The notes under the pieces: model-generated
Database searches by the model: none
What the model was told of the DNA's origin: nothing
The model's input: the letters and a program-made list of their open reading frames with translations, nothing else
Program-made: the position numbers and the translations under genes
Origin: a bacterium
GTDB taxonomy: Bacteria > Patescibacteriota > Minisyncoccia > Phycocordibacterales > UBA2100
DNA: 64,000 nt
NCBI GenBank assembly: GCA_038128225.1
Contig: JAYPJF010000002.1
Span: forward strand, 191,751-255,750
Direction of reading: 5' to 3'
Part shown: positions 11,135 to 55,994 of the stretch, piece by piece
How positions within the stretch are numbered: position 1 is the stretch's first letter
How the letters are laid out: the number at the start of each line of letters is the position of its first letter

Positions 11135-11551
11135 ATGAAATACGAAAAGGGTTCCGACGCCTCTGTGACCTCTTTGGATTCTTCGGAGCGCGACCGCGAG
11201 ACGCGCTGGTGGCGTGTGCTAATTGAGATCCCGGTAATTTTCTGGGGTCTACTCACCGAGTCGATTAAGTTCGCCGGCATTGTTTTTTGCGGCTGGGTTC
11301 TGTGGAATGCCGCCCAGGAAACCGGTGTCGAACTGATCGGGGTTCTGGACCAAGCGGGAAAGCTTTATATGAAGCTACTTGAACCTGGACCGTGGAACAC
11401 GGAACAGATCACGCTTGCCGCCGCCGTCGCTTTCGGCGTCGGTCTCGCGCTCTACAAGAGTTATATCGTATGGGTGCAACTGCGTTCATGGGCGCGCGAG
11501 CACTTTGGCGGCACACGGAAGGCACGACACCTCACGATCAATCCGAGCTAG
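11135..11551 (+). CDS. Hypothetical membrane protein
   Basis: ORF with several hydrophobic segments. Confidence 0.3.
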   Translation: MKYEKGSDASVTSLDSSERDRETRWWRVLIEIPVIFWGLLTESIKFAGIVFCGWVLWNAAQETGVELIGVLDQAGKLYMKLLEPGPWNTEQITLAAAVAFGVGLALYKSYIVWVQLRSWAREHFGGTRKARHLTINPS

Positions 11552-11623: not shown

Positions 11624-12664
11624 TTAATCAAGCAAAGGTTTCTCGAGGAGCGCCGGTTCAATTCCGGGCGCTTCACCAGAGATTTTTAATACATCCTTAT
11701 CGATTTTTCCCAACTCTTTATACGCGGCATTGTAGTGACTTACGGTCGTACCGAGCGCAACGCCAAGTTTTGCATAGTATTCATCATACTTACCGATGTG
11801 ACGCCCGAGGTCTTCTACCCTATTACGTATTTCTTTTGCCGATTCTTCGATTTGAAGCGCCTTAAGTCCTTGCAAAACGGTTTGTAAATAGGCGAGAAAC
11901 GATGTCGGCGAGACAATAATGACTCGGTACGTACCGGCAGATTTTTGCAGCAAATTCTCCTCGTCGCCCCCCACACGATTCGTCAGAAGGTCGTAATAAA
12001 TACTCTCAGACGGTATCACCATAAATGCGAAGTCAGTTGTATTCTCGCTCGGGCGTATGTACTTCGAAGTTTCTTTAATTCGCATTTTCAGATCGTTCAC
12101 AAAAAGTTTCTCGTACCGCTGCTTAGTGTCAGGATCTGTCGCGTCAAGGTATCGCGTATAATTCTCGAGTGAAAATTTTGAATCAACGGGAATGATTTTG
12201 TCTTTGACAAACACCACCGCATCCGCAATCTCGCCATTACTGAACGGGTACTGCATTTGGTATGCATTCGGCGGCAATACATTCTGCAGTACCGCCTCAA
12301 GATAGTATTCACCGAGTACACCACGCTGCTTGGGGTTGGTAAGCGTATCTTGGAGTTTTTTTAGTTGCTCAGCAAACCCAACAACCTGCTTGTTGGTTTC
12401 GCCAAGCCGCGTAAGCCCTTCGGTAACCTCTTTCACAATACGCGTCGACTCGGAAAGTTGTGTGCGCAAACCTTCTTGCATGGTTTTCGCGCTTTCGCCA
12501 AGTTTTGCATCCATTGTTTGTCGCAGCTCCTGGATTGCTTGTTGCAATAAAAGTGATCCCGTATCATCTTTCTGCCCACGCGCACGAGCCAGTACAAAAA
12601 CGAGCGCCGCGACCGCAAGCGCCAAAACACCAATAACAATTAAAAGAATTGTTACCGCTTCCAT
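11624..12664 (-). CDS. rmuC: DNA recombination protein RmuC
   Basis: N-terminal TM helix and coiled coil, with a conserved RmuC C-terminal domain. Confidence 0.8.
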   Translation of the reverse strand: MEAVTILLIVIGVLALAVAALVFVLARARGQKDDTGSLLLQQAIQELRQTMDAKLGESAKTMQEGLRTQLSESTRIVKEVTEGLTRLGETNKQVVGFAEQLKKLQDTLTNPKQRGVLGEYYLEAVLQNVLPPNAYQMQYPFSNGEIADAVVFVKDKIIPVDSKFSLENYTRYLDATDPDTKQRYEKLFVNDLKMRIKETSKYIRPSENTTDFAFMVIPSESIYYDLLTNRVGGDEENLLQKSAGTYRVIIVSPTSFLAYLQTVLQGLKALQIEESAKEIRNRVEDLGRHIGKYDEYYAKLGVALGTTVSHYNAAYKELGKIDKDVLKISGEAPGIEPALLEKPLLD

Positions 12665-12693
12665 GGCCGCAGTGTATCACGACACGTACGTGA

Positions 12694-15318
12694 TTATGAA
12701 AATCGTCGCGCAACCACTTTAAGGGTTTCAATGAGCACAATGTTTGCCACCGCAAAACCAAGCAAGTACAGTGCAAATTGTATAGGAAACGTGGTGAGCG
12801 AGAGAAGTTCACGCATGGGTGCAAGCGTTACGCTCAACACCAAAATCCCGATACTTATACTGAGAGAGACGAGAAGCGACCGGTTGTTGAGAAGTGGTAT
12901 ACGCCACAACGGATTTGAAGGGTCTTTAAGTGACAGTGCAAACGAAAGTGCAGTAATTGAAAGCGCAACAAACATTACACTGCGCATTGTCTCGGCGGGC
13001 AAATGCGCCATAAGAAGCCACCCATAGAACCCGATCAACAGTGCGCTGCCGCCGATACTGACGAGTGTTATGAGTACGCCGAGTTTTCGAGTGAGAATCG
13101 CTTCTCCAAGACCTCGTGGTTTTTCACGCATGACCCCAGTGCGGGCCGGCTCGAACGCATACGGAATACTCATAAAACCTTCGTGGATGATGTTGGTCCA
13201 CAAAAGCTGTGTTGGCAAAAGCGGCAGCGGAGTGCCCATAACGAGCGCGCTCCCAATGACCATAACCTCACTCGCGCTCGTTGAAAGCAAGTAGGTGACA
13301 ATACTCCGCAAATTATCGACGACACGTCTTCCCTCTCGAATCGCAGATACGATAGTCGAAAATTTGTTGTCGAGTAATACCAGGTCGCCTGCTTCTTTTG
13401 CCACATCCGTCCCGCTACCCACGGTAATACCGATGTGTGCTGCAGTAAGTGCGGGCGCATCATTAACACCATCCCCTGTCATCGCAACCACTTCTCCGTG
13501 TTTTTTTAGCACCCGGACAACCCGCAGTTTCTGTTCAGGCAACACACGCGCAAGCACCGTGCACGACGCGAGTTTGGTCGCAAGCGCCTCATCGGAAAGC
13601 TGTTCCATTTCTTCTCCTGTCAGCATCTTCTCAGCGTTAATTCCAACTTCGTGTGCAACCGCGCGCGCGGTTTCTGGGTAATCCCCTGTGAGCATCATGA
13701 TCCTGACACCAGCTCCCTCGACTTCACGTATCGCATCAGGGACATCTTTGCGCACGTGATCTGCAATTGCCAAAAGACCAACAAACACTAGCTGTTCAAG
13801 CGTGCCACCACGTGCGTCGTCAGTTATTTTTTTCTCACGCGTGTCCGCGTACGCAACCGCAAGAAACTTCTGCCCTTGCGCCGCACCATCACGCTGCACT
13901 GCCATAAAATGCTCTCGCGTTTCTTTGTCGAGAATACGCGCGCCTCCCGCCGAAAAACAATGTGTCGCCTGTGCAAGAAGCGGTTCTGGTGCCCCCGATG
14001 CGTACACACGATACGCTCCAACTGGGTTCGCGTTGAGCGAAAGTGCAAAGCGACGCACAGACTCGAATTGAACAAAATCAAGTCGTTCATGACCTTGAGT
14101 GAAAAGTTTCTGCTGCTCTATTCCGTTGGCATAGCCACACTCAATAATTGAACGTTCTACAGGACGGCCACGAAACACGGGTCCTTCAGCAGCGTGTTCC
14201 ACGAACGCATCGGATGCGAGTACCGCCATTTCGATAAGAGCGCGGTTGTCGGGATGATCAACGCCGCCTGCGTGTTCGAGTGTTCGTGCCGTATATAAAT
14301 GTGCGATGCGCATCGCCCCTTCCGTGAGCGTTCCGGTTTTGTCAACAAGAATGACCGTTGTGGCACCCAGCGTTTCCGTTGCAAGCAATCCCCGCACCAA
14401 ACCACCACGGCGCAGAATCGATTCCATGCCAAGCGCGAGTGTAATGGTGACTGCGGCGGGCAATCCTTCTGGCATTGCAGAAACGGCAACCGCAACACTA
14501 ATCAAAAGCATCTCAGCAACTGCAGTCCCACGCAAAAGTCCAACAATGAAGATGGCCGCCAACACCGCCAAAATAAGCAAAGAAATTACTGTCGCAAGCC
14601 GACGCACGCTCGCACTCAGAGGCGTGTGTTCATCTTTTGCATGTAGAGCGAGCGTTGCAATCGTTCCAATCGTTGAGTGCGCCCCCGTCTCAACAACCAC
14701 CCCACGACCGCGCCCCGCAACAACAACCGTACCGCCCCACGCCATATTTTTGCGGGCATTTTTTGGTGCCGTCTCAGGTTCGAGCGCTTCGCTTTTTTCT
14801 ACCGGGTGCCACTCACCGGTAAGCATCGATTCATTAACGTGAAGTCCTTGTGCCTCAAAAATGCGCACGTCAGCCGGCACTACGTGTCCTCCTGCAAGTT
14901 CGACCACATCGCCCGGTACGAGTTCGCGAATAGGAATAATTTTGTGCTCTTCTTGCCGGACCACTTCCGCGGTGGGTGCTTGCGTTGCTTCAAGCGCCTC
15001 AAATATTTTTGAGGCGCGTGCTTCTTGTGCCACGCTTGCACCTACGTTAATACACAGCGCTATCACCAACACCACCGCATCTGCATATTCAGAAAGGAGG
15101 AGCGTTACAATGAGTGCGCCAACAAGAACGAGTGCTAACGGACTCCGAAACTGTCCCACGAGTGCGCGGACAAACGTCCATCGCTGCCCGCGCGTCAGTT
15201 CGTTGTATCCAAATCGCTCCAGGCGTGCCACCGCTTCGCGCGCCGTGATGCCGTGCAATGAAGAATGCAGTTCATCCAACACTGTTGCGACAGTGCGGCT
15301 ATGCCATGGCGAGCTCAT
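12694..15318 (-). CDS. Cation-transporting P-type ATPase (type II, Ca2+/Mg2+-like)
   Basis: DKTGTLT phosphorylation motif, TGDGVNDAPAL hinge and about ten TM segments. Start placed at the internal Met MSSPWHS. Confidence 0.9.
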   Translation of the reverse strand: MSSPWHSRTVATVLDELHSSLHGITAREAVARLERFGYNELTRGQRWTFVRALVGQFRSPLALVLVGALIVTLLLSEYADAVVLVIALCINVGASVAQEARASKIFEALEATQAPTAEVVRQEEHKIIPIRELVPGDVVELAGGHVVPADVRIFEAQGLHVNESMLTGEWHPVEKSEALEPETAPKNARKNMAWGGTVVVAGRGRGVVVETGAHSTIGTIATLALHAKDEHTPLSASVRRLATVISLLILAVLAAIFIVGLLRGTAVAEMLLISVAVAVSAMPEGLPAAVTITLALGMESILRRGGLVRGLLATETLGATTVILVDKTGTLTEGAMRIAHLYTARTLEHAGGVDHPDNRALIEMAVLASDAFVEHAAEGPVFRGRPVERSIIECGYANGIEQQKLFTQGHERLDFVQFESVRRFALSLNANPVGAYRVYASGAPEPLLAQATHCFSAGGARILDKETREHFMAVQRDGAAQGQKFLAVAYADTREKKITDDARGGTLEQLVFVGLLAIADHVRKDVPDAIREVEGAGVRIMMLTGDYPETARAVAHEVGINAEKMLTGEEMEQLSDEALATKLASCTVLARVLPEQKLRVVRVLKKHGEVVAMTGDGVNDAPALTAAHIGITVGSGTDVAKEAGDLVLLDNKFSTIVSAIREGRRVVDNLRSIVTYLLSTSASEVMVIGSALVMGTPLPLLPTQLLWTNIIHEGFMSIPYAFEPARTGVMREKPRGLGEAILTRKLGVLITLVSIGGSALLIGFYGWLLMAHLPAETMRSVMFVALSITALSFALSLKDPSNPLWRIPLLNNRSLLVSLSISIGILVLSVTLAPMRELLSLTTFPIQFALYLLGFAVANIVLIETLKVVARRFS

Positions 15319-45040: not shown

Positions 45041-45113
45041 TCCGCGGTAGCTCAGTCGGTAGAGCGGCTCGCTGTTAACGAGTTGGTCGTAGGTTCGAAT
45101 CCTACCCGCGGAG
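45041..45113 (+). tRNA. tRNA-Asn (anticodon GTT); CCA is encoded at 45114-45116
   Basis: TCCGCGG/CCGCGGA acceptor, anticodon loop CTGTTAA and T-loop GGTTCGAATCC. Confidence 0.85.
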
Positions 45114-46814
45114 CCAGTTAGGAATAGAGGCGGCGAAAGCTGCCTCTTTCCTTTTGGTGTAGCCCTTCTTTTCAGGTTCGAGCGTAGCAAGTAGCTGTTT
45201 CTGGTCCCGAAGCTCGTTTTCAATGAGCAAATACGGGTGCAGCCTTTCAATGCTTAGTTTTTTGTCCTTAAGGGTTAGGTTCGAGCCGATGGTTGAAAAT
45301 ATCTCCCGTTTCTTCTGTAACGGAGCGTCTTCGTTGAAATGTCTTTTCGCAAAGGCACAGAAATTGAACGTACGTTCAGCAACGGCGAGGTCATGGTCAA
45401 ACTTCTCTCTAGTACCACCCATTTCTTTTTCAATGCGCGTTCGCTCCGTGACTAAAGCTTTTTTCTCTTGAGCAAATTCATCGGGGGTATACAGCTCGTG
45501 GTGAGAATTCTGTGGTGAGGTAAATATCTTGCTCAAATTAGCAAGCCTTGTTTGGCAGTCATCATATGCCGCCTGAAGAGACACGCGCACCGTCTTCTCT
45601 TCTTTAGTAGAGGTCTTCTGCTTTTCCTGAAGGTAATCGAGGGCTAAGGTTAGGTAATCCTCATCAATGGTAATTTTCTCAAGCTCCTTGTTGAATTGTG
45701 ATTCTAGGTCTTCTACACGCACATGCTTTTGCGTGCAGTCCCGATTCTTTTTCTTGGTGCAGTGATAGTAAACATATTTCAAAATGACAGGATTCTGCAT
45801 TTCGGAAACGTCAGTCAAACATTTCGGGCAATCAGTCCTGTTTTGACTTGAAAACTTGAATTTGCAGTTTGAGCAAATAATCTGATTTTTCTCTTCAGCC
45901 GTGATGGTCGAATCACATTCACCGCAGCGCATTAGACCTGTGAAAGCGAACTCGTGGAGCTGCATTCGAGGCTTACCTTTCTTGCCTAAAAGAAGCTGCG
46001 CACGCTGATACTCCTTTTCAGTAATCATTGGAGGATGATTACCTTTTATCATTTTCTCTTCGCCAGTTTCAGGGTCTGTCCAAGGAAAATAGCCGTAATA
46101 AAAAGGGTCTTTTAGGATGTTGTACATGTGGCTCATCGTAGGAGGATTGCCACCAATCTTCCTGTGCTTGAGGGTTCTCAAGCCCCACTCGTTTATTGCA
46201 ATGTCACGAATCTTGGAAACAGGATAGCTTCCCGTAAGAAAGAGGTCCCATATTTTTCTCACCAACTCAAAACGTTCTGGGTCCGCAGCAATAGTTTTGC
46301 TGCCTTTTTCAGTGCCAACGTTGATATATCCAATCGGACCACCTGAAGGTCGCCAACCGCGTTGAGCTTTACTGTTCAAACCACGTTTAACAACTCTCGA
46401 AAGTCGCATGACGTAATCTGTCGCACGACCACTCTCTATACTCATCAGAAGCCCCGCGTCCTGCGGATAATACGAGCGTGTAGGAGTTTTTATAACTTTA
46501 ATAACCTCATTCTGCAGCATCCACTGGAGCCTGCCGCTATCAATGGGATTTCGAGAAAGACGGTCTACGTCCCAGCAAATTAGCGCGTTTGCCTCTTCGC
46601 GCTCGATACGCTCAAGCATTTGATTAAAGACACTTCGACCAGGGGCTTTCGCACTGCGCTCTTCAGTAAAAGGTTTTGCGACCAACACCAAACTCTCTCG
46701 CTCGCACTGCTTTTTGAGCGCTCCGATTTGGTCGTCTATGGATGCAATCTGGCGTTGAGAATCCTCGGAACTTTTACGACAGTATGCAAAGAATTTAAGA
46801 GTTTCCGTTTTCAT
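45102..46814 (-). CDS. Large serine recombinase (resolvase/invertase N-terminal domain, recombinase domain, zinc ribbon)
   Basis: YCRKSSEDSQRQ catalytic Ser motif. About 570 aa with a C-terminal Cys-rich zinc ribbon and coiled coil. Confidence 0.85.
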   Translation of the reverse strand: MKTETLKFFAYCRKSSEDSQRQIASIDDQIGALKKQCERESLVLVAKPFTEERSAKAPGRSVFNQMLERIEREEANALICWDVDRLSRNPIDSGRLQWMLQNEVIKVIKTPTRSYYPQDAGLLMSIESGRATDYVMRLSRVVKRGLNSKAQRGWRPSGGPIGYINVGTEKGSKTIAADPERFELVRKIWDLFLTGSYPVSKIRDIAINEWGLRTLKHRKIGGNPPTMSHMYNILKDPFYYGYFPWTDPETGEEKMIKGNHPPMITEKEYQRAQLLLGKKGKPRMQLHEFAFTGLMRCGECDSTITAEEKNQIICSNCKFKFSSQNRTDCPKCLTDVSEMQNPVILKYVYYHCTKKKNRDCTQKHVRVEDLESQFNKELEKITIDEDYLTLALDYLQEKQKTSTKEEKTVRVSLQAAYDDCQTRLANLSKIFTSPQNSHHELYTPDEFAQEKKALVTERTRIEKEMGGTREKFDHDLAVAERTFNFCAFAKRHFNEDAPLQKKREIFSTIGSNLTLKDKKLSIERLHPYLLIENELRDQKQLLATLEPEKKGYTKRKEAAFAASIPNWLRG

Positions 46815-46815
46815 A

Positions 46816-47067
46816 TCACCTCAAAAGAGAACGAATTTTTCCTGTAAGCTGCTGTAACTTAGTCTCAAGCTGAACAACATATTCCAAAAAAGAATCGTCC
46901 CGAAAGTACACACCGAAACATTTGGAGCATGCGTATTTTTCAGTACCCCAAATCCTCTTAAGTTTACAGGAAAGACAAGGTTTTTTCATGGCAATTTTGC
47001 TTGCTTTGTAATATGTGCTGCCAAGCTGCCAACCTGATTCCTTAAGGAAAGAAAAACAACTTGGCAA
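46816..47067 (-). CDS. Small zinc-finger protein (CxxC...CxxC)
   Basis: 83-aa ORF with two CxxC pairs, directly upstream of the recombinase. Confidence 0.35.
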   Translation of the reverse strand: MPSCFSFLKESGWQLGSTYYKASKIAMKKPCLSCKLKRIWGTEKYACSKCFGVYFRDDSFLEYVVQLETKLQQLTGKIRSLLR

Positions 47068-47082
47068 TTTGGCAATGGATTA

Positions 47083-48225
47083 TTAAATATCATCAAAAAT
47101 CGAATTTTCTTCTGTGGGAGATACTATCCCTGCAAGGGCTTCCTCCTCTTTAGGCAAGAAGTAGGAATTCTGCTTACCAACCTTTACGGAATTAATTTTG
47201 CCTAAAAGAACTAGCTCTCGAAGCGCCTGGCGAACATTCTTTTGACCCGCATCTTTTTTAGTGATTTCAAGTAGCTCGTTAGTTGTTCGCATCTCGCCTG
47301 AAGAGAGAACATCCAATATCAGGGATTTGGCGGTCTCTTTCTTGTTTGCATCTTCTTCAATTTCACCTAGGTAGTCGAACTTAAAGACAGTACGACCGTC
47401 CTCCACGCCATCGGTAATCTTCACCGCAAAAGGCTTTATTTCGCTCCCTAGGCGATTTTTACGCTGATAGAAGTGTGTCTCCCCAGACACTTCATCTTTC
47501 CTGAGCATGAGGAGTGTTTCTACACTCGCTACCTTGTCTTGAGAACCAAAAAGCTGCTCTTTTTTTGGTATTTTTCCTTCAAACTGCTGATTCTTGCGTA
47601 GGTGTTCTGTGAATATGACCGACACGCCAGAATTTTTCAGAATCTGGAACTTCTGGAAGAAATGCCGTACTTCTTCTGCCTTTTCTTCGCGCATCCCGCC
47701 TGTGGCAGGACGGAAGGTATCAATGATGAGAACATCAATTTTGTTCTTAAGGATATAGTTCAGAAGCCAACGGTATTTCTTATCTTCTTCGCCCGTACCG
47801 TTCAAATTAAAATCATCCTCATTGAGGATAAAAAGGTTTTCATTTGAAGGGTCAAATTTCATCATTCGACCTCGCCTCTGCATTTCGCTCACTGCCATTT
47901 CCAGATTTACATACAGAACTCTGCATTTTTCAGTTTTGAATCGTGTATCCCCAAACCAGGGTGTACCTGTTGTAAGGCACTCCGACAGATGCATTATGGC
48001 TATAGACTTTCCTTCACCAGAAACAGAAGCCACGATTGATACGCCTTCTTTTGGGAAAAGGTCTTTAACTAGCCATCGGTCATCTGGGAAAGAAAGCTTA
48101 TCTATGTCCGCCCAAAGCACAGGTTCAGGCTGTTTGCGTTCCTCGCGCACAAAATCCCATTCGCGCGGTGCGCCACCTAGACTTTCGATATGCTCTTCAA
48201 GCTTTTGCCATTTTTCTTCCTGCAT
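47083..48225 (-). CDS. RecA-like P-loop ATPase of the RepA/AAA_25 type with C-terminal winged-helix
   Basis: Walker A SGEGKS and Walker B DVLIIDT. Domain order typical of plasmid/ICE RepA-like helicase loaders. Confidence 0.55.
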   Translation of the reverse strand: MQEEKWQKLEEHIESLGGAPREWDFVREERKQPEPVLWADIDKLSFPDDRWLVKDLFPKEGVSIVASVSGEGKSIAIMHLSECLTTGTPWFGDTRFKTEKCRVLYVNLEMAVSEMQRRGRMMKFDPSNENLFILNEDDFNLNGTGEEDKKYRWLLNYILKNKIDVLIIDTFRPATGGMREEKAEEVRHFFQKFQILKNSGVSVIFTEHLRKNQQFEGKIPKKEQLFGSQDKVASVETLLMLRKDEVSGETHFYQRKNRLGSEIKPFAVKITDGVEDGRTVFKFDYLGEIEEDANKKETAKSLILDVLSSGEMRTTNELLEITKKDAGQKNVRQALRELVLLGKINSVKVGKQNSYFLPKEEEALAGIVSPTEENSIFDDI

Positions 48226-48406
48226 ACACTTTCGGCAGAATTACCTCGTCTGCCTTAAGGTGGCTCGTAATTGAACCGACCAGACAAACTAATTTTTCAA
48301 AATACTCAAGAGCCATCTCGTCAGAGATGGTTGTACGGTTTTTTATTTCGTAGAGCGCCTTAAACCTCTTGATGTATTTTTCTTTTTCGACCATGTGATG
48401 CGGCAT
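48197..48406 (-). CDS. Hypothetical small protein
   Basis: ORF only; overlaps the ATPase gene start. Confidence 0.25.
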   Translation of the reverse strand: MPHHMVEKEKYIKRFKALYEIKNRTTISDEMALEYFEKLVCLVGSITSHLKADEVILPKVYAGRKMAKA

Positions 48407-48867
48407 CTGCCGTATCTTGAAAATAGCAATCCGTTATATAAAAGAGAATCCCAATTCTAGGATTCTTTTTTAAAAAATAATGTAGGAAAAAAATAATTAG
48501 TATCAACTCAATATGTCTTAAATATTGGGTCAGTACTAAAACACCTCAACTTAATATCTGGTCAGTATTTTCTTAGTACTAAGCACTTATGCACAGATTT
48601 TCCATGTTCCAAAATACTTTCTTCCTTAAGGCAAGAGTGATTGCTATTTGGGACGAAAATCAGGCATAATGGAAAGACAACTGAATATTGGCTCGCAAGA
48701 GCAGCGACCTAAACCGTCTGAAAAGGCGGCATGGTCGAGGAATCGCGTTCAACATAAAAAACCCGTTATTAGGGCGTTGAACGCGTTATGGAGGGAAACT
48801 TCCATAGAGGTCTTCGGACCTTCCTAGTAGCGGGCTTTTTGTTTGGTTGCTTATCAAAGAAACCAAA

Positions 48868-49119
48868 TATATGTCATTTCTTTTACATGCGTTGCAGGCA
48901 CTAGGTCTGTATCTTCTTTACGGCAAAATCTCTGCCCTTTTATGGTGGGGATTGCTTGCCCTTTTCGTGGCTTTCTATTTTGCAGGAAAAACCTACTACA
49001 ACGTATCGGATTCAGACGACCAAAAGGTAAAAGCTTTTTGGTATCAGATTCGGTCTCTCGTATTTATTACTGATATCGTTTCAGTGTTAGCTCTATATGG
49101 CTATTTCTTCCTACGATAA
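48868..49119 (+). CDS. Hypothetical small membrane protein
   Basis: Three hydrophobic helices. Lies immediately upstream of the 804-aa gene. Confidence 0.3.
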   Translation, partial: YMSFLLHALQALGLYLLYGKISALLWWGLLALFVAFYFAGKTYYNVSDSDDQKVKAFWYQIRSLVFITDIVSVLALYGYFFLR

Positions 49120-49173
49120 TGGATTTTTACTGTATGCCCCAAAAGTCTTCATTTTTGCTAAAATTAATACCTA

Positions 49174-51588
49174 ATGAAAGGCACCGCAAACGTAAAACTT
49201 AGACCTCTGAAATTTGCCTTTTTGGTGAATCCAAATGATTCTAAAAGTCTTGCGCGTGCTTTGGAACTCAACGCTTCTTTATGGGGTGGCAGTTACAACC
49301 CGATAATTCCAACTTTCAATCGTATTCCAGCAGTTTGGCGTAAACGTGGAGATGTTTTTGGACACACAGGTAAAACCATCCTCAAGGGGTATATTGATGC
49401 CTTTAACCCAGACTTTCTGGTTCCACTGGGTGACTGTAAAAAAATGAAGCTTGATGATTTTGGTCGTGATGTAGTTGATGATAAAAATCTTGAGGTAAAC
49501 ACCGCAGACGGAACACCAAATTACGGTGTGGGCATTTTTGAAGTGCTGAAAGGCTTTTTCGATAAAGAACTGAAATTCAAAAGACGATATCCAATAAATT
49601 TTATTTTTCCTATTCTTCCTAAAAAGAATAGGCTTTTTTATCAGAGCATCTTTGGATTACCTTCTAAAGAAATACAAGATGTTCTTGTTGAACATTGGCG
49701 AGAACCGCTTGGCGCTACAGATAAAGAGATAGGCTTTGAGAACTATCTTACTGAAATGCTCGCTTATTATCCAAGAAAGCTGATGCGGTTTGAGATTGAA
49801 GCTTCAAATCGTTCGGGTTGGCAGAAAGGTGAATGCATATTTTTAATGGACGCAAGCAATAATCACGACATTATTGATTATTGGAACCTAAGAGCTAATG
49901 GCTGGTCGGTGCTGCCCGTTGCCATTCAAGGCATGCATCTTGATGCGGTAAAAAACGAGGCTCAAAAATTCATCGAGGAGACTTCGGGTGTTAGTAGGCA
50001 CAATACTCAAATTTATTATCACGCCAATTTGATGAAGGCGCGAAGTGTAGATGAGAAGCATGTAAAAGATTTTGCCGCCTCGCTTTCTCCTAAGCCTGAC
50101 GAAAAGGCACGAGGTTCACGATTCTCAATTCAAGCTTGGTATCCGCGAATGTGGGATGAGTGGGCACGCCATAAAGATGGAGTTGGATTTTGTGAAGTCG
50201 AGAGCAAGTCTAAAAGCTATGACTTTAATGATGAGTCTGATGAGGTTTCGGTAAAAACAGTAGACCCTAAATTTGCTTTTAGGTTCGGAGGACACAACAG
50301 TTATTTTAGGTTTGCGAATGACGTTGCGACTAATAACTACAGTTACGATGACCTATATGCTGATGTGATACCTGAAGGTGGAGAACATCTCACCCGCGCA
50401 CTTAGCTCAATTCATTTTGATGAATGGCGTTTTTCCAAAAGAGGAGCCACTTACATGTCCAAATTTAAAGGTTGGACCATTCATATAAAAGTTCCGAAAG
50501 CAGAAGATGTTTTTACAGCCTGGATGAAAGACCAAGGTCTAGAAATAAACCTGTCTGCTCCAGGGAAAATAGCCAAGCAGATGATAAAACACCTGGGAGG
50601 CATACACGGTACAAATACCCTCGCTAACGAGCACATGATTGCTCTCCTGAAGAACATGGAGTCGGGCAAAGAAATGAATAAGGACCAGTTTTGGGGTGAA
50701 ATATCCAAAGTGGCTTCAACCAGAACCTTTAGGCAAGATGCATCAGAACTACTGAAACATTACGTTGAGAAAAAAATGTTTCAGCTAGGAGTTACTCTTC
50801 AGTGTCCAACCTGCACGCACAGTTCTTGGTACGACATTAAAGCTCTTAATTATGTCGTTACATGTACGAACTGCTTGGAGGAGTTTAATATCCCCACCCA
50901 TTCGCCTAATGATATTAAATGGGCGTACAAAACAAGCGGACCTTTTGGACTTCCTAAAAGAGCAGAAGGCGTGTATCCCACACTTCTAACTTTGCGCATT
51001 TTCTCTTCTCTTTTTCACCATAGCCCAATAACTCCGATGCTTAGTTTTGAAACTAAAATCAAAAATGTGGCGATGGAAGTTGACCTTGGTTTATTTTTCA
51101 GGAAATCTCAATTTAGAGAGGAGGACGAAACACGAGTTATTTTTGCTGAATGCAAATCTGAAAACAGCTTTGCTAAAAGTGATATAGATAAGATGAAATT
51201 AATCGCCGAAAAGTTCCCTGGTGCTGTATTGGTATTTGCGACTCTTAAGGAAGAGCTAAACTCAAAAGAAGTTGCTCTACTCAAACCACTTGTAAATAAA
51301 TGCCGCCGATATTACAAAAACGAGGAGCCTTATAACCCAGTAATGATTCTCACCAAGACAGAATTGTTTTCTTCTTGGGATTTGAATCAGACCTGGAAAG
51401 AAAAAGGCGGTAAATATGCCCCCTTCGGCGACAGACACTATTACGGCGATGAGTTGCTTAGCGTGTGTGATGCAACGCAGCAACTATATTTAGGCATGAA
51501 GCCTTGGAATGATTTTATACACGAGCAGTTTGAAAAGAGGAGGAAAAAGAAAGCATTAGCAACACCAGGAACGGCGCTAAACCCGTGA
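49174..51588 (+). CDS. Large orphan protein (804 aa) with central CxxC...CxxC zinc ribbon and C-terminal PD-(D/E)xK-like motif
   Basis: CPTCTHSSWYDIKALNYVVTCTNC zinc ribbon. EVDLGLFF...RVIFAECKS fits hhD...ExK. No match to any family I recognise. Confidence 0.45.
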   Translation: MKGTANVKLRPLKFAFLVNPNDSKSLARALELNASLWGGSYNPIIPTFNRIPAVWRKRGDVFGHTGKTILKGYIDAFNPDFLVPLGDCKKMKLDDFGRDVVDDKNLEVNTADGTPNYGVGIFEVLKGFFDKELKFKRRYPINFIFPILPKKNRLFYQSIFGLPSKEIQDVLVEHWREPLGATDKEIGFENYLTEMLAYYPRKLMRFEIEASNRSGWQKGECIFLMDASNNHDIIDYWNLRANGWSVLPVAIQGMHLDAVKNEAQKFIEETSGVSRHNTQIYYHANLMKARSVDEKHVKDFAASLSPKPDEKARGSRFSIQAWYPRMWDEWARHKDGVGFCEVESKSKSYDFNDESDEVSVKTVDPKFAFRFGGHNSYFRFANDVATNNYSYDDLYADVIPEGGEHLTRALSSIHFDEWRFSKRGATYMSKFKGWTIHIKVPKAEDVFTAWMKDQGLEINLSAPGKIAKQMIKHLGGIHGTNTLANEHMIALLKNMESGKEMNKDQFWGEISKVASTRTFRQDASELLKHYVEKKMFQLGVTLQCPTCTHSSWYDIKALNYVVTCTNCLEEFNIPTHSPNDIKWAYKTSGPFGLPKRAEGVYPTLLTLRIFSSLFHHSPITPMLSFETKIKNVAMEVDLGLFFRKSQFREEDETRVIFAECKSENSFAKSDIDKMKLIAEKFPGAVLVFATLKEELNSKEVALLKPLVNKCRRYYKNEEPYNPVMILTKTELFSSWDLNQTWKEKGGKYAPFGDRHYYGDELLSVCDATQQLYLGMKPWNDFIHEQFEKRRKKKALATPGTALNP

Positions 51589-51830
51589 AGACCTCGAACT
51601 TGACACATTTTGACAACCCTCCAGTAGACAAAGTAAAATATGAGGACAGTATGATGACGCGAGAGAAATTTCTGACCCTTAAGGAAGTTGCGAAAATTCT
51701 GCGTGTCAGCGAGAGGTCAATTTTCCGTTATATTCACGGCGGCAAGTTGAAGGCAAGCAAAATTGGGTACTGGCGAATACGCGAAAAGGACCTTGAGGAC
51801 TTTCTCGCAAAGAACCGCGCTTCAAAGTAA
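51585..51830 (+). CDS. Excisionase/MerR-like HTH (HTH_17) DNA-binding protein
   Basis: LTLKEVAKILRVSERSIFRYI helix-turn-helix. GTG start overlaps the upstream stop. An alternative Met start lies near 51651. Confidence 0.55.
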   Translation: MKTSNLTHFDNPPVDKVKYEDSMMTREKFLTLKEVAKILRVSERSIFRYIHGGKLKASKIGYWRIREKDLEDFLAKNRASK

Positions 51831-51834
51831 CAAT

Positions 51835-52767
51835 ATGAAAACGGCAACTGCATCAAAAATGACAATCAACAAGAAACCTGCAAAGAAGGCGGCAAAAAAG
51901 ACGTACAAAATTATTGACCTTTTTGCGGGTATCGGCGGCTTTCACATTGCTTTCCACAATCTCGGCGTAGAAACAGTTTTTGCGAGCGAATGGGACGAGC
52001 ACGCACGTAAAACTTACGAGCACAATTTCAAGAAAATTACGCCTTCTCTTTTTGAGAACGGAAACTTTGCAGGCGACATCACAAAGGTAGATGCGGCTTC
52101 AATCCCTGATTTTGATATTTTGACCGGCGGTTTCCCTTGCCAGCCGTTCAGTCAGGCGGGTTTCAAAAAAGGTTTTTCTGATGTGCGCGGGACACTTTTC
52201 TTTGACATCGTTCGCATCATTGATACAAAACGCCCAGTCGCTTTCTTTATTGAAAATGTACGTCATCTCCTCAACCACGATGACGGCAAAACCTTTGCGA
52301 CAATCAAAAAAGTAATTGAGGAGGACTTGGGGTACTCTTTCCACGCAAAAATAATAAAAGCGTCCGACTTCGGCTTGCCGCAACACCGACCTCGCCTGTA
52401 TATGGTCGGTTTCCGTGACAAAAAAATACCTTTCAATTTCCCTGAACCGATACCGCTTCAAGCGAGTATGTCTGATGTATTCGGAGCACCCGTGAACAAA
52501 AAAGTGGGTTATACCCTCCGACTTGGCGGCCGCGGTTCTGGTCTGCACGACCGCAGAAATTGGGATACTTACCTCGTCAAAGGAAAGGCCCGCAGATTGT
52601 CACCGAAAGAAGGAAAGAAAATGATGGGCATACCAGACGATTTTGAGTTTCCTGTGTCAGAAGCACAGGCAATGAGGCAACTCGGCAACAGTGTCGCTGT
52701 AAATGCGATACAGGCCACTGCCGCGGAAATTATCAACTCACTCAACAACTACTATGGCAAAAGGTAA
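51835..52767 (+). CDS. DNA (cytosine-5)-methyltransferase
   Basis: Motif I DLFAGIGGF, motif IV GFPCQPFS and motif VI ENV. C-terminal QLGNSV. Confidence 0.9.
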   Translation: MKTATASKMTINKKPAKKAAKKTYKIIDLFAGIGGFHIAFHNLGVETVFASEWDEHARKTYEHNFKKITPSLFENGNFAGDITKVDAASIPDFDILTGGFPCQPFSQAGFKKGFSDVRGTLFFDIVRIIDTKRPVAFFIENVRHLLNHDDGKTFATIKKVIEEDLGYSFHAKIIKASDFGLPQHRPRLYMVGFRDKKIPFNFPEPIPLQASMSDVFGAPVNKKVGYTLRLGGRGSGLHDRRNWDTYLVKGKARRLSPKEGKKMMGIPDDFEFPVSEAQAMRQLGNSVAVNAIQATAAEIINSLNNYYGKR

Positions 52768-53833
52768 TAAAGGCGAATGGAGTGAGTTCTATACGTTCCT
52801 GAAACTGCTTGCAGAAAAGCAGTTGAACGGTGCGGACGAAAATCTGCAAAAGATAGAGGATATTTTCTATCCGATTTTGAAAGTAATCCGCGAAGAAGCA
52901 ACGGGCAGAATGGATTACGAACTTGCCGAAAACAACAAAGTGAAGGTTGTGCAAACAGGTACAGAAGTCGCCCTCGTAGATGCTTCGGACCTCAAGTCGA
53001 AAGTGGTCCAGATATTTCAGACAATACGCGACAATCAGGATACTACTTTTGAAATCCCAGAAGCGGACGAACTGATGACTCGGTTCCATTCAAAGAAGTT
53101 GAGCGCTGGTAACTCTCACAAGGAAGACATCACTCTCAAAATTCACGACCGTATTACGGGCGCAATGCCGGAAGTCGGGTTCAGCATCAAATCAATGCTC
53201 GGTGCGGCATCCACACTTCTCAACCCTTCCGCCGCAACCAACTTTATTTACAAAATCTCGGGCCTTGATGAGAGTAAGATAGACGAAATAAACGCAATTG
53301 ATACTCGCTCAAAAGTACGTGACCGTCTTTCAGCAATTGTTGCGGCTGGCGGCAGTTTCTCCTATGCGGGCATCAGTTCAGATACGTTCACAAAAAACTT
53401 GAGGCGGGTGGATACGGTTCTGCCTGAAATAATGGCGCAGCTTCTTCTTGCCTTCTATCTCGGTAAGGGCAACGGGTTGCCAGACCTTATTTCAAATTTG
53501 GGTGACGGAGAAACCAACATTCTCACCTTCACGCTGGACCGCTCCGATTACGAGTTCAAGGTCAAAGGTCTCTTGCACAATGTAGCCCTCGGAATGGTGC
53601 CCGATACCGCTTGGGACGGCCTTATACGCGCTCACGGGGGCTATATCATCGTCAGGGAGGACGGAGAGGTGGTCTGTTACCACGTCTACAACGCAGATGC
53701 TTTCAGGTCTTACCTGTACAAGAACACCCGATTTGATACCCCCAGCACGACCCGCTACGGGTTCGGGAAGGTCTACAAGGAAGGCAACGACCTTTTCATG
53801 AAACTGACCCTGCAAATCAGGTTCATCAGATAA
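52754..53833 (+). CDS. Type II restriction endonuclease (HpaII-family-like) paired with the C5-methyltransferase
   Basis: Overlaps the methyltransferase stop by 14 nt. N-terminus MAKGNKGEWSEFYTFLKLL resembles R.HpaII-family proteins as I recall them. Confidence 0.5.
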   Translation: MAKGNKGEWSEFYTFLKLLAEKQLNGADENLQKIEDIFYPILKVIREEATGRMDYELAENNKVKVVQTGTEVALVDASDLKSKVVQIFQTIRDNQDTTFEIPEADELMTRFHSKKLSAGNSHKEDITLKIHDRITGAMPEVGFSIKSMLGAASTLLNPSAATNFIYKISGLDESKIDEINAIDTRSKVRDRLSAIVAAGGSFSYAGISSDTFTKNLRRVDTVLPEIMAQLLLAFYLGKGNGLPDLISNLGDGETNILTFTLDRSDYEFKVKGLLHNVALGMVPDTAWDGLIRAHGGYIIVREDGEVVCYHVYNADAFRSYLYKNTRFDTPSTTRYGFGKVYKEGNDLFMKLTLQIRFIR

Positions 53834-53837
53834 AAAT

Positions 53838-54251
53838 ATGGCGGACCGCATCTCACAATCACAGCGGTCAAAAAATATGGCCGCAGTCAAAAGCCGCGGC
53901 AATAAAACCACGGAGCAAAAACTTCTCGTTCTTTTGAGAGAAAATAAAATTACAGGTTGGCGCAGGCACTACAAGAAACTTGCCGGCACACCCGACTTTG
54001 CCTTTCCTAAACGGAAGGTGGCGGTCTTCGTTGACGGCTGTTTCTGGCACGGGTGCGAATGCTCAAGTATTCCTAAAACAAACAGAAAGTTTTGGAAAGA
54101 GAAGATAAATGGAAATATCAAAAGAGACAAACTCGTGGTTTCACTGCTACGTAAAAAGGGATGGTTTCCAATCCGCATCAAAGAACATGAATTCAAAAAT
54201 AATAAAATACCCACCAACCTTTTAAACAGACTTGGTGTTAAATACGGATGA
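53838..54251 (+). CDS. vsr: Very short patch repair endonuclease Vsr
   Basis: FVDGCFWHGC motif and about 137 aa. Located downstream of the C5-methyltransferase and endonuclease. Confidence 0.85.
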   Translation: MADRISQSQRSKNMAAVKSRGNKTTEQKLLVLLRENKITGWRRHYKKLAGTPDFAFPKRKVAVFVDGCFWHGCECSSIPKTNRKFWKEKINGNIKRDKLVVSLLRKKGWFPIRIKEHEFKNNKIPTNLLNRLGVKYG

Positions 54252-54291
54252 CTTTTGGATAGGTTGTCCTGTGGCGGTATTTCCTCGGCAC

Positions 54292-54330
54292 GGGGGGCCA
54301 CTTTGGGGGGATACCTAGGGGGTATGGGGG
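54292..54330 (+). repeat. Four consecutive G5-6 tracts (G-quadruplex-forming motif)
   Basis: GGGGGG-N7-GGGGGG-N7-GGGGG-N3-GGGGG read directly. Confidence 0.5.
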
Positions 54331-54758
54331 TATTTTTTAACTTAATACTAAGTCAGTACTACGCAGCTCTGGCACATAAAAATCGTCCGAGTTATCCTGA
54401 ATCCACGTTCGGATTGCCTCAACGGTGTGGAGCTTGGTAACGCTTGGGATTTCTTGTGAATCGTTGTTTGTCGCCTTTAAGTGTCTATACTTAGTGCATG
54501 ACAAACAATGATGTAGAACTTGTAGATGTGGTTGATGAGAAGGGCAATGTTTTGGAAGTAGTGCCTAAACCGGACGCTCATAAGCGGGGGCTTCTTCACA
54601 AGACAGTAATGGAGCATTACGCAACGACTATCTCTGAGGCCGATAACTTCAAATACCGATTATTTCTTTTTAGTTTCGCCCGCTAATATTGACATACTGT
54701 CGTATCTGTGATATCGTTAGTGCGGCTATCGTGTCCTTTAGATATTGGGAGAAAGCAA

Positions 54759-55194: not shown

Positions 55195-55230
55195 GAGAGC
55201 CGCCTGGCTTCGGTCGGGCGGTTTTCATTT
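55195..55230 (+). terminator. Rho-independent terminator
   Basis: gccgcctggc-ttcg-gtcgggcgg hairpin followed by TTTTCATTT. Confidence 0.6.
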
Positions 55231-55962: not shown

Positions 55963-55994
55963 CCGCTTGGCATCTGCCAGGCGGTTTTCTTTTT
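55963..55994 (+). terminator. Rho-independent terminator
   Basis: ccgcttggca..tgccaggcgg stem followed by TTTTCTTTTT. Confidence 0.65.

Follow-up and report, generated by a model that had tools for sequence, protein, structure and literature searches.

The question raised by positions 48407-49173 of the 64,000-nucleotide (nt) window of contig JAYPJF010000002.1 (the window is the whole stretch of DNA analyzed, and all coordinates refer to it) is whether a seemingly noncoding interval serves in replication, in integration, or in the control of the genes around it. A first-pass annotation described the interval as an AT-rich gap with iteron-like repeats and long inverted repeats, and proposed an origin or an attachment (att) site. 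The gap is not empty, as it contains a gene for LOOT RNA (Rfam RF03000) and an 82-amino acid (aa) open reading frame (ORF), p82 (48871-49119), and the description as AT-rich holds for positions 48407-48676 (31.5% GC), while positions 48677-48846 have 48.8% GC, like the window as a whole (49.1%). The interval is likely the two-way control region of an integrative island of ~9.3 kb (~45112-54431) inserted in a tRNA-Asn gene of a probable Patescibacteria genome, with the LOOT RNA as a proposed switch within it. In this arrangement the leftward unit would be an operon of a small ORF (p69), a helicase-like/winged-helix protein of the AAA_25 family, a second small ORF (p83), and a large serine recombinase; the rightward unit would lead from a sigma-70-type promoter through a ~170-nt LOOT RNA into the p82 ORF and a defence cargo.

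Identity and Fold of the LOOT RNA

Positions 48706-48822 of the plus strand are a LOOT RNA: the match scores 75.6 bits against a gathering threshold of 46.4 (E 4e-13) and covers model positions 1-121/121. The LOOT RNA motif was reported by Weinberg et al. 2017 (PMC5737381) and is shown in the Rfam 14 paper (PMC7779021); the portions of the literature covered by the search assign it no host, context or function. The match comprises P1 (48706-48736) with a receptor-like CCUAAAC/GCAUGG internal loop, P2 (48744-48753 pairing with 48776-48785), P3 (48787-48806), a hairpin with a GAAA loop, and P4 (48807-48822), a hairpin with a UUCG loop. Two of these had been noticed before as DNA structures of an origin or att site. 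The inverted repeat said to be perfect over 12 bp is real, but it is perfect over only 10 bp (or 11/12), and the left arm given for it, AACGCGTTCAAC, is absent from the sequence, the actual arm being ATCGCGTTCAAC; it is P2 of the RNA, and the UUCG hairpin, found where it was said to be, is P4.

Comparison of homologs supports this fold. Among the matches listed, which is the scope of all counts of LOOT sequences and loci given here unless stated otherwise, 90 distinct sequences show 99.3% pairing in P2 with double changes at 10/10 pairs and 98.5% pairing in P3 with double changes at 8/8 pairs, from an alignment that had been fitted to helices P1-P4; P1 and P4 are also supported. The GAAA loop of P3 is invariant (GGAAAC). 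P1 resembles the 11-nt GAAA tetraloop receptor of group I and group II introns (CCUAAG...UAUGG), as the LOOT sequence CCUAA(A/C)C...G(C/U)AUGG likewise closes a hairpin, and differs from it at position 6 and its partner, which are A/C or C/U and not G-U. Docking of the P3 GAAA loop into the receptor-like loop of P1 may therefore be part of the fold.

The RNA extends beyond the Rfam model on both sides. A covariance model of the extended RNA (R1, 179 positions) matches the window once, at 48672-48850 (plus strand, 188 bits), and the extended RNA is placed at 48677-48846. The P1-P4 helices, the CCUAAAC/GCAUGG internal loop and the GAAA loop are those of RF03000; the transcript predicted here is ~50 nt longer than the 121-position model. 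The additions are a conserved 5' motif, ACAACUGAAUA, starting at 48677, an optional GNRA hairpin ahead of P1 that occurs in some members only (P0, here a GCAA hairpin at 48691-48702), and a 3' tail (48823-48842) that contains a U-tract and pairs with the P2 loop (48754-48773). The Rfam model stops at P4 and its consensus shows the tip of P2 as a local helix, thus the pairing of loop and tail lies outside the model.

The search for the P1 module also returned other RNAs. In group I introns, the P1 pattern matched regions P6 and P8, and a broad P1-loop pattern applied to viral contigs gave mostly chance matches together with these P6/P8 receptors. Two short IMG/VR contigs, L165 (1-60, minus strand) and L187 (1243-1310, plus strand), terminate in a CCUAAACC-hairpin-GGCAUGG module with LOOT-like hairpins after it, and one of them has a match to a levivirus maturation protein. 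They were rejected as LOOT, with no match to the Rfam LOOT model at E up to 10 and none to R1.

Promoter and Downstream Genes

A sigma-70-like promoter (TTGCTA, 18 nt, CATAAT; 48641-48670, plus strand) lies directly ahead of the RNA. A TANNNT hexamer is found 4-9 nt upstream of ACAACUGAAUA in 109/126 listed LOOT loci, compared to 22 at a control position, and this placement indicates that the RNA starts at or just before the motif, at ~48677 in the window. The motif is exact in 5/7 islands that were fetched by protein, independently of any DNA pattern. The LOOT transcript is thus probably ~48677-48846, made from its own promoter, and the motif now has a defined promoter and 5' end.

The RNA is followed closely by protein-coding sequence. 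The next ORF on the same strand begins a median of 45 nt past the U-tract, and p82 begins 25 nt past it in the window; such short distances leave no space for a second promoter. TM-like N-termini are seen in 62% of these ORFs compared to 14% of background, a difference to be treated with caution since ORFs were called mechanically. With its three hydrophobic segments, p82 is predicted to be a membrane protein.

A Second Helix and a Possible Terminator Switch

P2 has a terminal loop of ~20 nt whose sequence is complementary to the ~20 nt downstream of P4, a stretch that ends in the U-tract. Over 92 sequences the pairing of loop with tail has a median z-score of -5.5 against shuffled tails, and the duplex has a median of -24.9 kcal/mol between cognate partners vs -13.5 kcal/mol between non-cognate ones. 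The LOOT-sense strand forms the better duplex in 84/86 cases because of G-U pairs (259/1535 pairs), and this advantage of the sense strand argues that the pairing is selected at the RNA level. The helix has 19 pairs that are 85-93% paired in the 90 sequences, with double changes at 16 of them; these counts were taken from an alignment (A5) that was not fitted to this helix. LOOT thereby gains a second strongly covarying helix.

On steric grounds, this helix and P2 would be alternatives. A linker of 0-1 nt separates the 5' strand of P2 from the loop-tail helix, so that a 19-bp helix within a loop closed by P2 would be sterically impossible; the argument is a steric one and not a computed result. 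In the window the two conformers are predicted at -69.3 and -68.2 kcal/mol, a difference of 1.1. A G+C-rich stem like that of an intrinsic terminator is also recognizable in the pairing of ACCCGUUAUUAGG with CCUAGUAGCGGGC, which is followed by UUUUU, and the U-tract columns are conserved (A-U in 44-83/90 sequences).

Two covarying helices that would exclude each other, with one of them leading into a U-tract, suggest a terminator switch, and the question of LOOT function becomes a concrete one of termination vs read-through set by two competing helices. LOOT would be the 5' leader of the rightward unit. In one state, P2 would be closed and the fold probably braced by docking of the P3 GAAA in the P1 loop, and RNA polymerase would read through; in the other, the 20-nt loop of P2 would pair with the 3' tail, and the 19-bp helix running into the U-tract would act as an intrinsic terminator. 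Any factor that stabilizes P2 would then allow read-through into p82 and the cargo. Riboswitch and attenuator platforms (terminator vs anti-terminator), and leaders for processive antitermination such as the put RNA of HK022, likewise place a structured RNA directly between promoter and operon, and riboswitches and attenuators likewise have two mutually exclusive covarying helices with one running into a U-tract. LOOT differs in that the competition would be steric and topological, through closure of a loop and without shared nucleotides, and in the terminator loop of ~55 nt with its two hairpins.

Distribution of LOOT in Related Islands and Metagenomes

Seven contigs (L202-L208) were retrieved through homologs of the AAA_25 protein that are 59-79% identical to it. 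All seven carry LOOT (65-80 bits) at the same location, divergent from the series small ORF, AAA_25, small ORF, serine recombinase, and in all seven a small ORF comes after LOOT, with differing cargo beyond it. The cargos include a STAND-like 1359-aa protein, an OLD/AAA_15 pair, MutH with Dcm and SduA_C (Shedu-like), and TPR/SEC-C proteins. A tie between LOOT and the 804-aa protein that heads the cargo in the window was considered and rejected: none of 80 fetched loci of that family (of 367) matches the LOOT P1 pattern, and an Rfam search of 15 of the 80, among them the closest (81% and 67% identical), gave no match to LOOT. As LOOT is present in all seven AAA_25 islands and was found at none of these 80 loci of the 804-aa family, it is part of the island backbone, at the entry of a variable and mostly defence-type cargo slot. 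The arrangement is similar to the defence hotspots of P2/P4-like elements and to defence islands, in which a conserved backbone has variable cargo at one position (here HpaII restriction-modification with Vsr, Shedu-like SduA_C, an OLD/AAA_15 pair, or STAND-like NTPases), and differs in its Patescibacteria-like host, serine integrase, and structured RNA at the entry of the cargo slot.

LOOT had, to our knowledge, been known from metagenomes only. A scan of metagenomes with a pattern of the conserved 5' end and P1 loop gave at least 120 LOOT loci, many from groundwater, aquifer and wetland samples, along with 3 viral contigs. R1 gives full-length matches in 122/131 sources. Large serine recombinases confirmed by Pfam are present in at least 46 loci, mostly upstream and divergent, and in 24/29 of the listed loci with at least 3 kb on both flanks. 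The next most common ORF clusters near LOOT are terminase-small-subunit-like, N6/N4 and C5 methylases, AAA_25, and terminase-large-subunit-like, and this clustering points to residence of LOOT in serine-integrase elements, both islands and prophage-like contigs. The motif thereby gains a fixed address beside large serine recombinases, at the cargo-slot entry of integrative islands and in prophage-like contigs, and a probable host lineage in Patescibacteria-like metagenome-assembled genomes (MAGs) from groundwater and wetland metagenomes. The nearest homologs bear the names Patescibacteria, Taylorbacteria, Paceibacterota and Parcubacteria, so that the host probably belongs to the Patescibacteria group. 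The locus is part of the assembly of sequencing run SRR26337526.

A guide function like that of bridge RNAs was rejected by a crude test, in which cognate duplexes between LOOT and the att junctions were no better than non-cognate ones and ranks were even over 24 loci.

The Upstream Repeats

Between the divergent units lies a spacer of ~135 bp, from the predicted leftward promoter (-35 at 48501-48506) to the LOOT promoter, and the two 18-mers fall within it. They are present as the first-pass annotation placed them: copy 1, an 18/19-mer (TAAATATTGGGTCAGTACT, 48519-48537, plus strand), and copy 2 (TAATATCTGGTCAGTATT, 48552-48569, plus strand) are 14/18 identical and start 32-33 nt apart. The adjacent palindrome CTTAGTACTAAG is also where it was described (48572-48583), and has AGTACTAA in common with copy 1. 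A further sequence at 48587-48595 (plus strand), TTATGCACA, fits the DnaA-box consensus TTATNCACA, and GTTATCCCCA or GTTATCCACA is aligned here in L202-L205. As a DnaA box it was rejected, since TTATNCACA has 3 matches in the window, which is the chance frequency.

By our own binomial estimate, an AT-rich stretch of 220 bp should contain about one 14/18 direct repeat by chance, thus the tandem pair alone is not significant and its support comes from recurrence in related islands. The 64 kb of the window hold 3 occurrences of the core GTCAGTAYT, all of them on the plus strand and within the island; shuffled windows have a mean of 0.49 and 0/100 shuffles reach 3. Four close relatives also have the core in the corresponding intergenic region. 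The left half of copy 2, ACTTAATAT, is found in L203, L204 and L205, and ACTTAATAT and AAGTCARTACT / AAGTTGATA cores appear in the aligned close islands, inverted in L202 and L205. The alignment of five islands has further footprints: a covarying palindrome at the start of p69, a GTTATNCACA box, and a CCTTAAGG block near the LOOT -35.

The palindrome, GATGCGGCATCTGCCGTATC, is imperfect (48397-48416); it abuts the start codon of p69 on the upstream side, and its arms covary in L202, L203 and L205. It would be either an operator or an RNA hairpin controlling the leftward operon. The hairpin AGAATCC..GGATTCT with a T-run after it, pointed out in the first-pass annotation, is confirmed at 48445-48466; with its flanking T and A runs (48445-48472) it lies between the divergent units and resembles a terminator when read from either strand; at the corresponding position, L202 and L205 carry another A/T hairpin. 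The interval is a real, conserved cis-regulatory region. The 18-mers are most likely binding sites for a DNA-binding protein encoded by the island, for which the winged-helix end of the AAA_25 protein would be the best candidate.

Island Ends and the Split Recombinase Gene

The boundaries of the island lie far from the interval. A junction core, GGAGC, is present at 45110-45114 (attL), at the 3' end of the tRNA-Asn(GTT) gene (45041-45116, plus strand; found by ARAGORN, Rfam tRNA 73.5 bits), and again at 54429-54433 (attR), so that the interval is not the att site that had been suggested. The recombinase (570 aa; 45102-46814, minus strand) has the Pfam domains Resolvase, Recombinase and Zn_ribbon_recom and matches a PHROG integrase family (E 2e-55). 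In its integrated form it ends in ..IPNWLRG* within the tRNA gene, and its split-off 3' end, coding for ..LHTVEAIRTWIQDNSDDFYVPELRSTDLVLS*, lies at the other end of the island (54337-54433, minus strand), where it includes the attR core. The reading frame is continuous from the recombinase through the shared core GCTCC into this tail, and L203, L207 and L002, a Patescibacteria MAG locus, have the LHTVEAIRTWIQDNSDDFYVPELRSTDLVLS peptide conserved at their distal ends. The L206 recombinase reads ..SIPDWLRTVDAFRT across the junction, and many of the recombinases linked to LOOT end in peptides that are translated tRNA genes.

Conservation of the tail peptide and the open frame through the core together place attP, as judged from the sequences, within the 3' end of the recombinase gene, with integration in tRNA-Asn leaving the last ~31 codons at the opposite end of the island. 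The predicted circle junction is ..GGTGTGGAGC|CAGTTAGG.. (also given as ..CCTCAACGGTGTGGAGC|CAGTTAGGAATAGAGG..), and the predicted empty site is ..CCCGCGGAGC|TTGGTAACG.. (also given as ..CCCGCGGAGC|TTGGTAACGC..). The intact junction of recombinase and attP (AAYTGGCTCCNNACCGTTGA) was found in none of the viral contigs or fetched loci. Integrases of the SSV1 type have attP inside their gene, which is split on integration. The island is similar in that the attP core is in the recombinase coding sequence and, upon integration in a tRNA gene, the 3' end of the recombinase gene is transferred to the opposite end of the element; it differs in having a large serine recombinase and in swapping only the last ~31 codons, so that the integrated gene is nearly full length. 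The islands form a family of small, tRNA-integrating defence islands in which integration rewrites the 3' end of a serine recombinase gene, a property that may serve integrase mining.

The third 18-mer, TAATACTAAGTCAGTACT, is confirmed at 54343-54360. It had been taken for a possible cassette end; it instead codes on the minus strand for the end of the recombinase tail (..RSTDLVLS*), 70-85 bp inside attR at the right end of the island. Its similarity and that of the tail block to the intergenic motif is modest; by shuffling, it has p 0.013-0.028 in five close islands and is not significant in three distant ones.

A G-rich block, CACGGGGGGCCACTTTGGGGGGATACCTAGGGGGTATGG (54289-54327), separates the cargo from the stop codon of the recombinase tail, and a corresponding block (..CACGGGGGGYCACTTCTGGGGGTATGG) is conserved in L002 and L202-L205 whatever the cargo. 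L202 (1184-1288), L204 (3517-3629) and L205 (3612-3732) have the same backbone and right junction beside a DUF4142/DUF305 gene, with three different cargos. The segment from the LOOT side to the conserved G-rich end block seems to be where cargo is exchanged.

Alternative Explanations

The points that weigh against the control region and its switch concern both the RNA and the DNA. When helices are forced by alignment columns, P2 is favored by a median of 4.3 kcal/mol, and the long-range conformer is the more stable in 17/92 sequences. The presumed terminator is atypical, with a loop of ~55 nt that includes P3 and P4 in place of a short one, and pairing of the A-tract with the U-tract could merely lengthen a helix of a stable small RNA. 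The ends of the transcript and any read-through are deduced from sequence, and the conservation of the 5' motif and P1 loop in metagenomes is circular, as the retrieval pattern required both. On the DNA side there are only two 18-mer copies with chance-level similarity; the orientation and number (1-3) of the cores differ among relatives, L202 being inverted, and the more distant AAA_25 islands L206-L208 are without the motif. Lastly, p69 was rejected as a DNA binder: its AlphaFold2 model is a two-helix hairpin (pLDDT 71.8) and not a helix-turn-helix, and a fold search returned no match. That LOOT is a cis-acting switch specific to serine-integrase elements (islands and prophages) of Patescibacteria, set by a ligand, a protein, or the state of the element, and gating rightward transcription into membrane-protein and defence or lytic genes, is a tentative proposal. 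If true, it would be a new class of riboregulator, controlling expression of cargo in a lineage whose regulation is barely known. A possibility of similar standing is that LOOT is a free-standing small RNA (sRNA) that acts in trans and ends at the U-tract, with the loop-tail helix as its terminator or as part of a stable fold and the downstream genes unregulated. Rfam classes LOOT as Gene; sRNA, and an own promoter, a conserved U-tract, and the invariance of ACAACUGAAUA, as for an RNA end that is recognized, would all suit such a molecule, but it does not readily account for an ORF that follows so closely that a second promoter has no space, or for the covariation of two helices that the 0-1 nt linker makes incompatible.

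For the upstream DNA, a neutral or chance repeat without function is somewhat improbable. The expected number of such 14/18 matches is about one for the stretch, and short two-copy families are often due to chance according to the warning of the repeat tool, but the restriction of GTCAGTAYT to the island within 64 kb, and the recurrence of ACTTAATAT and AAGTCARTACT / AAGTTGATA in intergenic regions of four relatives that are otherwise poorly alignable, point the other way. More doubtful still is an iteron-type origin formed by the 18-mers, the AT-rich stretch 48467-48512 and TTATGCACA, and fired by the AAA_25 protein after excision as in SaPI/PICI islands and iteron plasmids. Residues 30-250 of this protein do match phage primase/helicase PHROG families, Prim-Pol is fused to some homologs, the C-terminus has a weak MarR-like winged-helix match (residues 297-361, E 0.0015, PHROG), the motif core occupies the same region in L202-L205, and a TTATNCACA-like box aligns across five islands; the low GC of 48407-48676 fits as well, a composition that is also normal for promoter regions. 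Iteron arrays usually have at least 3 regular, near-identical repeats of 17-22 bp, whereas here there are two copies at 32-nt spacing whose likeness is about what chance gives and whose number and orientation vary among related islands; TTATNCACA is at chance level, and the island has no primase gene. The likeness to SaPI/PICI islands and iteron plasmids, drawn from sequence alone, is that the integrative island is small and has its helicase-like Rep candidate beside an AT-rich repeat region, and the differences are a serine in place of a tyrosine integrase, two weak repeats that lie upstream and not downstream of the rep-like gene, and no primase. Least probable by far is a role of the 18-mers as att sites or as termini of a nested ~5.8-kb cassette (48.5-54.3 kb), an idea already largely refuted. 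Copies 2 and 3 agree at 17/22 positions and flank the LOOT-cargo segment, and cargo does vary among islands with the same backbone. The island junctions, with their common core GGAGC, are at the 3' end of tRNA-Asn and at 54429-54433, however, and the 48.5-kb repeats lie 3.4 kb inside the island and not at a boundary of element and host; copy 3 is recombinase-tail coding sequence conserved as protein in L203 and L002, its similarity to the intergenic motif reaches only p ~0.02, and L202, L204 and L205 exchange cargo yet are without the tail block.

Other Genes and Observations

The remaining genes of the island lie in a region of low G+C (45-55 kb of the window). On the minus strand, the AAA_25 protein (47083-48225; Pfam E 1e-31), a RepA/DnaB-like helicase ATPase, has no relatives in the viral and metagenome contigs searched and none in the PDB. 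The small ORF p83 (83 aa, 46816-47067, minus strand) lies between it and the recombinase, and a small ORF is found at the equivalent position in L203-L208. p69 (48197-48406, minus strand) likely has its true start at the ATG at 48394. No family was found in Pfam, NCBIfam, PADLOC or PHROG for p69, p83, p82 (plus strand) or the 804-aa protein.

The cargo (49174-54251, plus strand) consists of the 804-aa protein (49174-51588), an HpaII-type C5 methylase, the HpaII endonuclease, and Vsr. The 804-aa protein, for which the PDB also holds no match, has 441 homologs at E<1e-5 in many phyla, and its family has the 367 genome loci mentioned above. Its family has invariant residues C544/C547/C564/C567, a Zn ribbon, and D637...E659-C-K661, a PD-(D/E)xK-like motif (D..ExK). 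In L002 the homolog is followed by a protein with pP_pnuc_1 (pPIWI-associated nuclease). The 804-aa protein is a candidate for a new defence nuclease.

Several observations were made in and around the related islands. In L002 (1234-1640), a ~170-bp remnant of the recombinase 3' end beside a tRNA gene is joined directly to the 804-aa homolog; with no LOOT, AAA_25 or small ORFs, this is a decayed copy of the island. L203 has a group I intron match (11170-11417, minus strand, 63.6 bits) directly after the recombinase, where the other islands have a tRNA gene, and this may be an intron-bearing tRNA used as integration target. Downstream of the L206 island (11857-14674) are a helix-turn-helix gene, a BanI-type restriction-modification pair, and a second large serine recombinase, suggestive of tandem islands. 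Just outside the island in the window, a GC-rich hairpin with a T-run occurs in two copies that are 81% identical (55200-55230 and 55963-55993); one of them overlaps a weak sX6 match (17 bits), and both are probably terminators.

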